Virus record (IMG/VR): IMGVR_UViG_3300031227_000018
Coordinates: 45,219 to 109,218 of that record
DNA: 64,000 nucleotides
DNA from: a virus
Direction: 5' to 3' (one strand)
The notes beneath the pieces were generated by a model. The model saw only the letters and a list, made by a program, of their open reading frames with translations, was not told the origin of the DNA and made no database searches. Below, in pieces: positions 27,580-32,998 of the stretch; the first letter of the stretch is position 1, and each line of letters begins with the position of its first letter. A program made the translations under genes and the position numbers.

Positions 27580-27904
27580 TTTTGTGAACCTTGATTCAGG
27601 GTACAAAGAAAAAATGAGTCGGCTTGAAAGGTTGAAAAAAAGGTTTTCTGAATCTTTACCTGAAAATATAGCAAAATATAAGGCCCAAGAAATTGTTTTA
27701 ACATCTGATAAGTTGGAGAGTGTTAAGCTAAATGCCAATAATCATGCAGGATTAAGACCTAGTTTAGCTTTTTATTTTGAAAATGCAGAAGAAATTAAAA
27801 TGGTAGCAAAATATTTCAATACAAGTTTTAAGCAAATGGCAGTGAAAGATTCCGGTTTGTTAATTGAGATTATTAAAATGTTGGAGGAAACGAAAAATGG
27901 ATAA
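27566..27904 (+). CDS. Hypothetical protein
   Basis: SD GGAGG; overlaps both neighbours. Confidence 0.6.
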   Translation: MSLNNFVNLDSGYKEKMSRLERLKKRFSESLPENIAKYKAQEIVLTSDKLESVKLNANNHAGLRPSLAFYFENAEEIKMVAKYFNTSFKQMAVKDSGLLIEIIKMLEETKNG

Positions 27905-29306
27905 GAATAATTGTGAGATAGACAGCATGGAAAATTCTTGTGATTTGAGAGAAGAAGAGAATTGGGATTTTGATACAAAAGAAAGGTATGGAAGTCCACG
28001 AGTAAGTTCTGAATATATGGATTGTTCTTTGCCATTGACTTTTGATCAATATTCGTATTGTTCTATGAAGTGCAAATATTGTTTTGCATATTATCAAAAA
28101 GCGATGAATCCGTCTATGCGTTCTGGGATAAAATTAAAGGGGGTTAATGTAGACAAATTGATTAAAATGTTTAAAGGGGAAATACCTGAAGACCCATATT
28201 ATCATAATTTTATTAAAAAGAAGTTCCCATTCCATTGGGGTGGCCTTGCTGATCCGTTTGATATGGTTGAAAAAAAATATAAACTTGGTTTTAAATTATT
28301 GGAAACTTTGGTGGAATTGAATTATCCAGTTATATTTTCTACAAAAGGAACATTACCCTCACAAGAACCCTATTATTCTTTGTTTAAGAATGCTGCAAAA
28401 AATAAGAATTTTGCATTTCAGTTCAGTATTATTGCTAATTCCGATGAGTTATCGAAAAAGATAGATGTTGCAGTTCCGACAACTTCTGAAAGATTACAGT
28501 GCATGAAAACAATGTCAGATTTAGGTTATTGGACTGTATTAAGATTAAGACCTTTTATAGTTGGAATAAGTGATATTGATGTAGAAGAGCTTATAACCCG
28601 TTCTTCTCAAAATGGTGCGAATGCTATTTCCACTGAATTTTATTGTTATGATGCTAGATGTTCAAATAATGTAGAAATAGCAAAAAGATTTAAGGAAATA
28701 TCGCAAATATGTGGTTTTGATATCATCGATTTTTACAAAAAGTTAAGCCCTTCTGAGCGAGGTGGTTATAGGAGATTGAATAGAAATCTTAAAGAAGAGT
28801 ATGTGAAAAGAATGTATACAACCTGTAAGAAGGTTGGTATGCAATTCAATATTTCGGATCCAGATTTTAAAGAACTTAATGACAGCGGTTCTTGTTGTGG
28901 TTTGCCTGAATTAAGGGAACAGTATGACAGTGATTTGGTTAATTGGTCTCGTGGGCAATTAACTTATCATCTCAAGGAATTACGTAAAAGATATTGGGCA
29001 AGTGGAGGTAAAGAAAGGTATTTAAAGATTCGTGATGTGATGGGAGATTCTTATGATGGTTGGTTAAAAGAACCGCGTTTTTATAGTGATAGTCTTAAAA
29101 ATTGGGCAACTTCTTGGGCAAAAGTTAATATGGGTTATAGAGACGAATTCATACAAACATGGAATAATACCAGGAGTTCTGGTAATCCGTACAATTATTT
29201 TCATGGTAAGATTAAACCTTCTTATATTGATGATGATAATAATGTTGTTTTTGAGTATGTTCCCCATGATTATGAGAAGAGGTGGAAAGAAGAAGGGATA
29301 TTGTAA
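27897..29306 (+). CDS. Radical SAM enzyme (spore-photoproduct-lyase-like)
   Basis: DQYSYCSMKCKYCFA (CxxxCxxC), GGLADPF, STKG, RLRPF, late SCCG. Start ATG 27897 after GGAGG. Confidence 0.9.
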   Translation: MDKNNCEIDSMENSCDLREEENWDFDTKERYGSPRVSSEYMDCSLPLTFDQYSYCSMKCKYCFAYYQKAMNPSMRSGIKLKGVNVDKLIKMFKGEIPEDPYYHNFIKKKFPFHWGGLADPFDMVEKKYKLGFKLLETLVELNYPVIFSTKGTLPSQEPYYSLFKNAAKNKNFAFQFSIIANSDELSKKIDVAVPTTSERLQCMKTMSDLGYWTVLRLRPFIVGISDIDVEELITRSSQNGANAISTEFYCYDARCSNNVEIAKRFKEISQICGFDIIDFYKKLSPSERGGYRRLNRNLKEEYVKRMYTTCKKVGMQFNISDPDFKELNDSGSCCGLPELREQYDSDLVNWSRGQLTYHLKELRKRYWASGGKERYLKIRDVMGDSYDGWLKEPRFYSDSLKNWATSWAKVNMGYRDEFIQTWNNTRSSGNPYNYFHGKIKPSYIDDDNNVVFEYVPHDYEKRWKEEGIL

Positions 29307-30044
29307 ATGGGAATAAAATATTGTAGGTCTTGTTGTCAAATGACTAGTCACGGTTTAAATGACAGGTGTTTAAAGTGCGGAAAAAATAATTTAATTCAAA
29401 AAAATATATTGGGGGAAGAATGTTGGGTTAGAAAAGATACTTGGGATGAAAATATTTTTAAAGAAATGGGATTGTATTTGAAAAAGATTTCTTTAACTCC
29501 TGAGGATGTCTGGCTGGATGTAGGCGGTAACATAGGGAGTTTTTGTAAAAAAATTGCCAAAGAAGTTGCCACTGTTATTGCTTATGAGCCAGATGAAAAT
29601 AATTTTGAACTTTTAAAGAAAAATAATGAAGAAAGTGATAATATTATTTTTGTAAATAAAGCTGTTATTGGAAATGCTGATATTGTGAGGGATTTTTATT
29701 TGAATCAAAAAACCAATAAGAGTACACATTCTTTTTTTGTTAAACGTGGAAGGGAACGCGTTGAGGTTGGATGTGAGAATGTTAATGAGATAATTCAAAA
29801 GTATAAAGTTGATAAAATAAAAATTGATTGTGAGGGGAGTGAGTACGAAATCATAAAATCTATTGTTGATTTTTCTTCAATTAAAGAAATATTTGTGGAA
29901 TTTCATTTAAATATTTTATGTAAAAAGAATGATTTAACTAAGTACAGGGAAGTTATTAAAATCCTTAAAAAGAATTTTGCGTATTTGGAGTATCCGGAGG
30001 ATGTTAAAAAAAATTGGCATGTTTATATTTATGTGAAAAAATAA
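29307..30044 (+). CDS. FkbM-family SAM methyltransferase with N-terminal zinc ribbon
   Basis: LDVGGNIG, AYEPD..N..LL..N, IKIDCEGSEY, VEFH; CRSC..CLKC at the N-terminus. Confidence 0.9.
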   Translation: MGIKYCRSCCQMTSHGLNDRCLKCGKNNLIQKNILGEECWVRKDTWDENIFKEMGLYLKKISLTPEDVWLDVGGNIGSFCKKIAKEVATVIAYEPDENNFELLKKNNEESDNIIFVNKAVIGNADIVRDFYLNQKTNKSTHSFFVKRGRERVEVGCENVNEIIQKYKVDKIKIDCEGSEYEIIKSIVDFSSIKEIFVEFHLNILCKKNDLTKYREVIKILKKNFAYLEYPEDVKKNWHVYIYVKK

Positions 30045-32099: not shown

Positions 32100-32614
32100 A
32101 AGAATTTATTGCAGTTATTGGTCAAAGTGCATGTGGTAAAACAACATTTGTTCAAAATGAATTTATTGGGGCAAATGAGATGGTGTTAAATAAAGATCCA
32201 CTTTTACATACTGTTGTTAATGATTGTTGTTTATTGGGGGATTATGTTACGTCTGTGAGGACAAAAGGTACTGACAGGTTTTCTTATTCTATTTTACCAG
32301 ATTTGATTGAGTTTATAAAAAATAAAAAAGATGAATACAATCGTTTTGTCGCAGAAGGTGATAGAATAAATTGTGAAAGATTCTTCCAGTCTTTAAAAGA
32401 TTTGAAATTGAATGTTACGGTTTATGTTTTTTTATGTGATGTTAATTTGAGCGTTCAGCGTAGAGTTGATTCTGGTTCAAAACCTTCAGAGCAATTTGTA
32501 AGGGCAACTCAAACTAAAACTTTAAGAATGAAAAAAATGGTAGAATCTTTAGGGTTTAAAGTTATTGTTGAAGATTCTAGAACAGAAAACAATATCAAAC
32601 ATGGATGGTGGTGA
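32096..32614 (+). CDS. P-loop nucleotide/DNA kinase of the type linked to base-modification clusters
   Basis: GQSACGKTT, LGDY..KGTDRFS, EGDRI, RR..GS motifs. Confidence 0.75.
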   Translation: MKEFIAVIGQSACGKTTFVQNEFIGANEMVLNKDPLLHTVVNDCCLLGDYVTSVRTKGTDRFSYSILPDLIEFIKNKKDEYNRFVAEGDRINCERFFQSLKDLKLNVTVYVFLCDVNLSVQRRVDSGSKPSEQFVRATQTKTLRMKKMVESLGFKVIVEDSRTENNIKHGWW

Positions 32615-32617
32615 CTT

Positions 32618-32998
32618 ATGCGTGAAGAACTTGAAGCAAAAATGTTTTGTCAATTATTATATAAAGAGGGGTATGTTGAAGGTACGTCTGGTAATTTAAG
32701 TTTTAGAGATAGAAGTAGAGTTAAAATAACTCGTACAGGTTGTACATTGGATGATCCATTTTTTGTTGATACAGAAAGTTTTGAGGCTTCATCTGATGTT
32801 AATTTACATAAAGAAATTTATCGATTGACGGATAGTGATTGGATTTTTCATGTTCATAAAGACCTTAAATTAAAATTTCTTTTGACAGATAAAGATTTGG
32901 ATCTTCATTGGTTTAATGTAAGAGATCATGGGGTTTGGGTTGGATGTGGAGTTGATATAAAAATTTATAGAATTCTTGAAGATGAGGGAATTTTATAA
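32618..32998 (+). CDS. Minimal class II aldolase/adducin-family protein
   Basis: GTSGNLSFR, ITRTG, ASSD..LH..IY, FHVH, HGV. Confidence 0.8.
   Translation: MREELEAKMFCQLLYKEGYVEGTSGNLSFRDRSRVKITRTGCTLDDPFFVDTESFEASSDVNLHKEIYRLTDSDWIFHVHKDLKLKFLLTDKDLDLHWFNVRDHGVWVGCGVDIKIYRILEDEGIL

Follow-up and report, generated by a model that had tools for sequence, protein, structure and literature searches.

How does a phage that apparently carries the enzymes for decorating 5-hydroxymethyl-2'-deoxyuridine (5-hmdU) obtain the hydroxymethyl group, when it encodes none of the known enzymes that make it? The question is raised by an uncultured salt-lake phage represented by a 109,218-bp IMG/VR record (IMGVR_UViG_3300031227_000018; direct terminal repeats, completeness rating 100%), whose terminal 64 kb (64,000 nucleotides, positions 45,219 to 109,218) are hereafter called the window. 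Eight genes packed end to end on the + strand at window positions 27566-32998 include an amino acid:DNA transferase (ADDT), a predicted P-loop kinase, and a radical S-adenosylmethionine (SAM) enzyme resembling spore photoproduct lyase (SPL), referred to below as rSAM. Because successive gene starts and stops abut or overlap, we treat them as a single operon, which is embedded in a replication module with a PCNA-type clamp and its loader upstream and DnaB, DnaG, and DnaE downstream. Two routes to hydroxymethylpyrimidines have been described, namely a folate-dependent thymidylate synthase (TS) homolog acting on nucleotides, or an O2- and 2-oxoglutarate-dependent dioxygenase acting on DNA. Judged from its sequence, the operon may serve to hypermodify thymidine after replication, with the rSAM replacing the usual C5-hydroxymethyl source, i.e. 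a TS-family dUMP hydroxymethylase or a TET/JBP enzyme, a reading to which we give about an even chance.

Of the parts of the kinase/ADDT pathway, the transferase and an adjoining predicted kinase were found, whereas a 5-hmdU source of the TS family or of the Tet_JBP type was not. The initial annotation had reported that the window lacks a TS homolog, and a full-genome search for hmdU-pathway genes extended this to the entire 109,218 bp. The complete genome holds no gene for ThyA (PF00303), ThyX (PF02511), Tet_JBP (PF12851), or a C5-methylase (PF00145). Custom hidden Markov models (HMMs) for the TS-like, TET, myo-inositol-1-phosphate synthase (MIPS), TET-associated glycosyltransferase (TAGT), and HMUDK_hel families of related loci found nothing in all six frames of the genome, and the TS-like and TET models run with --max over the six frames returned nothing below an E-value of 0.2; the same searches gave matches in positive controls. 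Because the phage encodes no C5-cytosine methylase, thymine is the likeliest 5-methylpyrimidine substrate.

Comparison with related clusters indicated what stands in place of the missing source. Among 83 IMG/VR loci with ADDT relatives, 70 carry Tet_JBP (87 bits in a representative), and the closer relatives share the order Tet_JBP, FkbM or GT4-like gene, ADDT, MIPS, HAD, and P-loop kinase. The FkbM, ADDT, HAD, and P-loop genes of the window are homologous to those of the TET-type clusters, whereas TET and MIPS are absent from the window, and the rSAM occupies the exact Tet_JBP position. A TS homolog is likewise missing from two relatives whose genomes (154 and 172 kb) are complete. TET-linked clusters without a dUMP hydroxymethylase have been described previously (Lee et al. 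2022, PMC8989533), and validated phage T-dioxygenases include one subclass that depends on ParB as its activator (O'Toole et al. 2026, PMC13229309).

The same replacement recurs with other partners. In 61 IMG/VR rSAM loci, the rSAM is placed after the clamp loader and before DnaE, and the next genes vary. A TAGT (PF20691, 57.7 bits) follows the rSAM in 30 of these loci, which are without ADDT. ADDT (42-78 bits) and a P-loop kinase lie beside it in L107, L120, L142, and L144, where they come with MIPS, GATase-like/amidoligase, or PLP (pyridoxal phosphate) genes. A weak HMUDK-like kinase and DUF2284 follow the rSAM in four loci, and unknown families do so in the remaining ones. The order in L120 (rSAM, exonuclease, MIPS, FkbM, ADDT, and a DSP phosphatase fused to a P-loop kinase) amounts to a TET-type gene set with the rSAM replacing TET and the DSP phosphatase replacing HAD, and that in L142, which is complete, is PLP enzyme, ADDT, kinase, ParB-like gene, and rSAM. 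A ParB_N protein (47 bits) is encoded upstream of the rSAM in six loci, overlapping or abutting it in most, and an HMM built from these rSAM-linked proteins alone detected, in 20 TET loci, a homolog whose gene immediately precedes TET and overlaps it (E-values 1e-15 to 1e-23). This position at TET is the activator slot of the ParB-dependent T-dioxygenases, and in the window the corresponding slot before the rSAM is filled by orf112, the first gene of the operon. Four partner sets thus adjoin the rSAM: TAGT; ADDT plus kinase, with three tailoring kits; a kinase-like gene plus DUF2284; and a ParB-like activator. Since these four independent sets, which elsewhere depend on a hydroxymethylpyrimidine source, adjoin it in genomes without known sources, non-orthologous displacement is the simplest explanation.

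The distribution of the three candidate sources (TS-like, Tet_JBP, and rSAM) is in line with displacement. None of 224 loci carries two of them. Neither TET nor a TS-like gene above threshold was found in the 61 rSAM loci, and none of the 83 ADDT loci has an rSAM or a TS-like gene. In 80 loci with relatives of the rSAM-linked TAGT, the source was a TS-family gene (81 bits) in 59, the rSAM in 16, and TET in one, with none of the three in four; most of the 59 TS-type loci also carry a gene with the 5-hmdU DNA kinase helical domain (115 bits in a representative). Among 14 rSAM phage records, eight of them at least 90% complete, Tet_JBP was found in none and a TS match in one.

The rSAM itself carries an invariant CxxxCxxC motif (C55/C59/C62) and further invariant cysteines at C43 and C333-C334, and GGAGGA lies 8 nt upstream of its ATG. 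It does not belong to its closest NCBIfam models, PA0069 (59.5 bits, cut-off 360) and Rv2578c (48.2 bits, cut-off 430). An AlphaFold2 model (pLDDT 87.6) had SPL as its best solved match, with Z 19.1 and a root-mean-square deviation of 3.3 Å over 273 of 340 residues, covering the whole SPL chain; the next radical SAM fold followed at Z 15.5, 3.6 Z units lower. In sequence, the rSAM is 13-14% identical to SPL (PDB 4FHC and related entries), and SPL was not found when PDB sequences were searched by profile with the rSAM. An added C-terminal domain (residues 322-469) contains the invariant CC pair. The SPL catalytic cycle runs via a thymine allyl radical in DNA. The initial annotation had suggested that the rSAM might act directly on the thymine methyl; the SPL match and the TET or TS-like place that the enzyme takes beside four partner sets both lend this suggestion indirect support, and the chemistry stays predicted.

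The family comprises at least 471 metagenomic homologs (43-76% identity among the matches listed), labelled 'DNA repair photolyase' in the sources. Searching 50,697 cultured-phage records with the rSAM by tblastn gave no match, nor did blastn of the whole cluster against phage records. The cluster stretch (window 27864-33000) is present in salt-lake metagenomes of 11 studies, with no RNA holder listed for it, and a promoter and terminator scan of the operon stayed at chance level. Several homologs contain inteins (PF14890; L088:9302-11104, P0122, P0124, P0125), and rSAM open reading frames are split or duplicated in L088, L115, and L131. L140, L141, L145, and L147 gave rSAM tblastn matches with short reading frames only under table 11, and may use another genetic code or hold degraded copies.

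The small gene orf112 overlaps the rSAM ATG by 8 nt, and members of its family stand before the rSAM in at least 49 loci. The HMM of family c6 matches 49 of the 61 rSAM loci and none of the 83 (TET-type) ADDT loci, and its matches in the TAGT set are the 16 loci with the rSAM; families c17 and c6 are homologous (hhalign 98%), and orf112 belongs to no Pfam family. Part of this association may be lineage synteny. We did not adopt orf112 as a truncated ParB, given marginal local matches to the C-terminal ~40 aa of the rSAM-linked ParB-like proteins (E-values 1e-4 to 1e-6; hhalign 11-37%) and no Pfam support.

Table 1 Genes of the operon in window coordinates
Product	Position	Strand	Basis and remarks
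orf112, conserved small protein of 112 aa (family c17/c6)	27566..27904	+	candidate rSAM accessory, from c6 HMM context
SPL-like radical SAM enzyme (rSAM), 469 aa	27897..29306	+	PF04055 30.9 bits, CxxxCxxC; proposed to oxidise the thymine methyl without O2
FkbM-family SAM methyltransferase with N-terminal CxxC...CxxC Zn ribbon	29307..30044	+	PF05050 50.8 bits (cut-off 22.7), TIGR01444 73.9 bits (cut-off 37.7)
Amino acid:DNA transferase (ADDT, formerly aGPT-Pplase)	30045..31214	+	PF18724 57.9 bits (cut-off 26.2)
Small HAD-like protein, predicted phosphatase	31229..31606	+	DxDG (DLDG) and FDDD motifs; PHROG 415 (polynucleotide kinase family), E 2.5e-6
DUF2284 metal-binding protein	31590..32099	+	PF10050 26.9 bits (cut-off 25); proposed redox/accessory partner of rSAM
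Predicted P-loop kinase, DNA-hypermodification type	32096..32614	+	Walker A GQSACGKT
Truncated class II aldolase-like protein, 126 aa	32618..32998	+	PF00596 33.7 bits (cut-off 22.2)

The initial annotation had singled out an unusual enzyme combination without a PLP decarboxylase, and both points held: every enzyme that it named was confirmed at the position and on the strand given in Table 1, the cluster contains no PLP enzyme, and the open reading frame at 30045, on whose membership of the transferase family the idea depended, clears the PF18724 cut-off. This ADDT is present as a single copy in the genome and has an invariant C270; its 80 metagenomic homologs (34-71% identity) include the window's own protein and one shorter match (49% over 48% of the query). 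The FkbM protein matches the HMM of the FkbM proteins from TET-type clusters (E 6.7e-16). The HAD-like protein, which has no Pfam or NCBIfam match, matches the HMM of the corresponding HAD genes (E 2.8e-56) and is 35-62% identical to its counterparts across the ADDT loci, including that of Caulobacter phage Cr30. The P-loop protein has no direct Pfam match; it is matched by an HMM from its relatives (E 1e-21), PF18751 Ploopntkinase3 is recognised in 15 of the 23 members of its family (best E 1.8e-19), and it is predicted to be a kinase of the DNA-hypermodification type. The 99-kb phage of L120 has no separate HAD gene; its P-loop hypermodification kinase carries a fused dual-specificity phosphatase domain (DSPc, 52 bits; L120:12823-13887). 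Because this fusion replaces HAD, kinase and phosphatase appear to belong to one pathway, and a HAD slot held by a DSP phosphatase fits a phosphatase role for the HAD-like protein of the window.

The two remaining genes are less familiar in this setting. The DUF2284 protein has three invariant cysteines (C38, C49, and C58), and all 30 of its 30 Atlas matches are DUF2284 proteins in mostly viral clusters. Its fold search gave at best Z 6.4 (MetH activation domain, nitroreductases, CblD), which is below the meaningful level and serves as a lead only. DUF2284 genes occur in eight of the 61 rSAM loci (window not counted), directly 3' of the rSAM in three, and lie beside TAGT, kinase, or ADDT sets. 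That DUF2284 accompanies the rSAM whatever the tailoring set suggests an accessory or redox partner of this enzyme, so that the family gains the functional context that had been anticipated for it. The match of the aldolase-like protein is confined to positions 7-92 of the 183-position profile; compared with 180-aa aldolases, the protein lacks ~37 aa internally and is thus not a full-length fold (about 180-215 aa). It keeps the metal-binding histidines H78, H80, and H104 and the phosphate-binding G25-N26-x-S28, which do not vary within the mini family and line up with those of the 180-aa aldolases, and is probably a metal-dependent sugar-phosphate enzyme. Among 1.84 billion representatives, no more than six short homolog clusters were found, a scan of viral contigs found no relatives, and all NCBIfam equivalog scores were far under their cut-offs. 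The earlier idea that the aldolase fold acts as a decarboxylase was not adopted: the sole relevant match, OxoTetrPhDc (E 0.016), is far under its cut-off, nothing else speaks for it, and the three metal histidines and the phosphate motif kept here are those of sugar-phosphate enzymes.

Elsewhere in the window, a GroEL-type chaperonin gene (PF00118, 184 bits; 23036-24811) lies shortly upstream of the clamp genes, and a GIY-YIG/NUMOD3 homing-endonuclease gene (46754-47374) lies in the recombination module 3' of a Rad50-like gene. The idea of a clamp dedicated to modification was dropped, as clamp and loader adjoin such clusters in many lineages, which is ordinary replication-module synteny.

Genes neighbouring the rSAM in other phages merit separate mention. 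A B12-binding radical SAM enzyme is encoded directly 3' of the SPL-like rSAM in L101 (9541-11193), L104, L106, and L136, and together with the unknown ~450-aa family c15 suggests further carbon-radical tailoring of bases. Two families without Pfam matches recur directly 3' of the rSAM and are candidate tailoring enzymes: c28 (about 356 aa, L108:9423-10493), which is also present in four TS-type TAGT loci, and c15 (350-466 aa, L087:6966-8021). PolA-type phages (L163-L228, e.g. L172:3539-11405) share a conserved block of UvrD helicase, HMUDK_hel kinase, TAGT-like glycosyltransferase, TS-like hydroxymethylase, YfbR-like HD nucleotidase, DUF3310, and PolA. Often the block also includes an rSAM-SPASM gene, which likewise accompanies SPL-like rSAM loci.

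What the operon might attach to thymidine can be approached through the companions of the ADDT. FkbM and the GT4-like gene alternate in one slot among the relatives, and this alternation, with MIPS and a phosphatase as conserved companions of the ADDT clade, suggests that the adduct in the relatives is a polyol (inositol-type) group whose hydroxyls are later methylated or glycosylated. Because MIPS is absent from the window and the mini aldolase has metal histidines and a sugar-phosphate motif, another sugar or polyol donor is plausible here, albeit with low confidence. The initial annotation had proposed a sugar-derived or methylated adduct; the association of MIPS with FkbM, ADDT, phosphatase, and kinase in relatives, the GT4/FkbM alternation, and the aldolase fold here lend it indirect support, and the modified base itself stays predicted. 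More generally, the tailoring genes (MIPS or aldolase fold, phosphatase, FkbM or GT4) point to undescribed polyol- or sugar-type thymidine adducts.

A pathway can be proposed in which each chemical step, the step order, and the nature of the adduct are inferred, the oxidation of the thymine methyl by analogy with the thymine allyl radical of SPL and with radical SAM dehydrogenases. The rSAM, perhaps aided by orf112 and primed by DUF2284, would cleave SAM, and the 5'-deoxyadenosyl radical would take a hydrogen from the C5-methyl of thymine in DNA. The allylic radical would then give one electron to the cluster or a partner, and water would trap the resulting exocyclic methylene cation to yield 5-hmdU, such that SAM would serve as two-electron oxidant and water as oxygen donor with no need for O2. 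Subsequently, the P-loop kinase would phosphorylate 5-hmdU, and the ADDT would swap the phosphate for a nucleophile, maybe a polyol or sugar (phosphate) from the aldolase-fold enzyme instead of the inositol supplied by MIPS; the HAD phosphatase would remove a phosphate and FkbM would O-methylate the adduct. In our estimate, it is about as likely as not that the rSAM does the work of JBP/TET without O2 by oxidising the thymine methyl, and that a polyol- or sugar-type O-methylated adduct is then built. A wider proposal falls slightly short of even: the SPL-like rSAM family would hydroxylate the C5-methyl of thymine in DNA, driven by SAM and without O2, and so provide a third route to 5-hydroxymethylpyrimidines that feeds many phage hypermodification pathways. 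In this proposal, orf112 or the ParB-like protein would activate the enzyme and DUF2284 would be its redox partner. The two-electron radical SAM oxidases BtrN, anSME, and DesII abstract hydrogen by a 5'-deoxyadenosyl radical and oxidise the substrate radical by one electron, with SAM as net oxidant, which is the mechanism proposed here. Unlike the rSAM in this proposal, they have small molecules or peptides as substrates, and most of them carry auxiliary clusters; we know of no oxidase of this type that acts on DNA or hydroxylates a methyl group.

Several points weigh against displacement of the hydroxymethyl source by the rSAM. To our knowledge, there is no precedent for methyl hydroxylation by an SPL-type radical SAM enzyme, and an auxiliary cluster is not obvious, because the family has only three extra invariant cysteines. 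The rSAM is near-constant in one lineage's replication module (clamp, loader, rSAM, DnaE), so its associations may be partly synteny, and some rSAM loci carry no recognisable tailoring gene. Source exclusivity is imperfect at the level of whole records: G015 has a TS-family match of 53 bits about 8 kb from the rSAM, G023 one of 29 bits with an internal stop, and L117 and L139 a sub-threshold TS-like gene (20 bits) beside the rSAM. Finally, gp53 of Pseudomonas phage M6, a remote rSAM homolog, is a tailoring isomerase and not an entry enzyme (PMC8989533).

This last point leads to the first rival explanation, in which the rSAM acts like M6 gp53, rearranging a group installed by the ADDT, and 5-hmdU comes from an unrecognised phage or host source. 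M6 gp53 is SPL-like, of equal length, and has demonstrated isomerase activity (PMC8989533), and its remote homology to the rSAM is detectable by hhalign (probability 93.8%, E 1.8e-7, 21% identity over 210 columns). Nevertheless, we regard this explanation as unlikely. The window rSAM resembles gp53 only by this remote profile similarity and has no adjoining PLP or TS-like gene, and thus no PLP decarboxylase partner, and tblastn found no relative of it in the cultured-phage records. Besides the window, an ADDT is present in only four of the 61 rSAM loci, and because 30 have a TAGT and no ADDT, an amino-acid isomerase would have no substrate there. Furthermore, complete genomes yield no hmU source, and the rSAM heads the cluster, in the slot that leads from ParB to TET.

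An equally improbable alternative keeps the rSAM as the activating enzyme of the thymine methyl, or of host-made 5-methylcytosine, with a product other than 5-hmdU, for instance by direct coupling or in another oxidation state, and lets kinase and phosphatase act on a small-molecule donor. Kinase and phosphatase do co-occur, even fused in L120, with sugar-phosphate enzymes (MIPS, aldolase fold) alongside, and the second rSAM-SPASM and B12-rSAM genes that adjoin the rSAM in many loci can be taken to show further radical chemistry. However, the kinase family is of the Ploopntkinase3/HMUDK type, which is tied to hydroxymethylpyrimidine DNA pathways, the substrates of characterised ADDT and TAGT enzymes are pyrimidines with a hydroxymethyl group, free or phosphorylated (PMC8989533), and the same partners occur elsewhere with TS-like or TET sources, both makers of hydroxymethyl groups. 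That the rSAM is merely the lineage's SPL-like DNA-repair or replication lyase, next to an ADDT module that is inactive or differently fed, would fit the 'DNA repair photolyase' label, the position between clamp loader and DnaE in most loci, and the loci without known tailoring gene, but is very unlikely given the four different hydroxymethylpyrimidine partner sets beside the rSAM, its exclusivity with TS-like and TET genes over 224 loci, the adjoining ParB activator, the inteins and strong conservation that point to an essential function, and the orphan TAGT, kinase, and ADDT genes without substrate that complete genomes would then hold.

Full-text literature searches found no paper on a radical SAM enzyme as source of 5-hmU or 5-hydroxymethylcytosine, and none that ties SPL-like radical SAM enzymes to TAGT, ParB, or ADDT as entry enzyme; current papers name two routes only, TS homologs and 5mYOX. 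Displacement of the hydroxymethyl source by the rSAM, if true, would represent new enzymology, and radical SAM enzymes would gain only their second role in modifying DNA, the first being that of the M6 gp53 isomerase. It would account for the building of hypermodified thymidine by phages in oxygen-poor habitats, give a function to the large 'DNA repair photolyase' family and to viral DUF2284 proteins, and might yield a tool that oxidises T at chosen sites in DNA without O2.

Among known systems, SPL shares with the window rSAM the CxxxCxxC cluster and the closest structural match, and its DNA-thymine substrate and thymine allyl radical intermediate are proposed to be alike in the rSAM. Unlike SPL, the rSAM has an added C-terminal domain and a phage replication and modification setting, and a repair role is unlikely. 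The 5-NedU pathway of Pseudomonas phage M6 (gp51 ADDT, gp52 PLP enzyme, gp53 radical SAM isomerase, gp54 kinase, and TS-like hydroxymethylase gp58) likewise has a single cluster with kinase, ADDT, and an SPL-like radical SAM enzyme, the last about 480 aa long. In M6, however, 5-hmdU is made at the nucleotide level by the TS homolog and the radical SAM enzyme acts after the ADDT, with a PLP decarboxylase, whereas the window has neither TS homolog nor PLP enzyme and its rSAM family occurs mostly without ADDT.

In the cultured, T4-like Caulobacter phage Cr30 (L001, KF301602, about 51.8-60.7 kb), ADDT, HAD, and P-loop proteins are 32%, 52%, and 27% identical to those of the window, and MIPS and a weak TAGT-like gene lie between the genes for these three. 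In contrast to the window, Cr30 encodes Tet_JBP (77 bits, annotated as SNF2 repair protein) and a canonical-scoring TS (373 bits), and lacks rSAM, DUF2284, and mini aldolase; its DNA may contain an undescribed inositol-type thymidine adduct. The TET/JBP (5mYOX) clusters of metaviromes differ from the window, which has no Tet_JBP anywhere, an SPL-like rSAM in its position, no MIPS, and DUF2284 and the mini aldolase in addition. Both lack a dUMP hydroxymethylase, a subset of the TET/JBP clusters also has a ParB-like gene upstream of the entry enzyme, and the two would share a post-replicative logic, in which the thymine methyl is oxidised in DNA and then taken over by kinase and ADDT.

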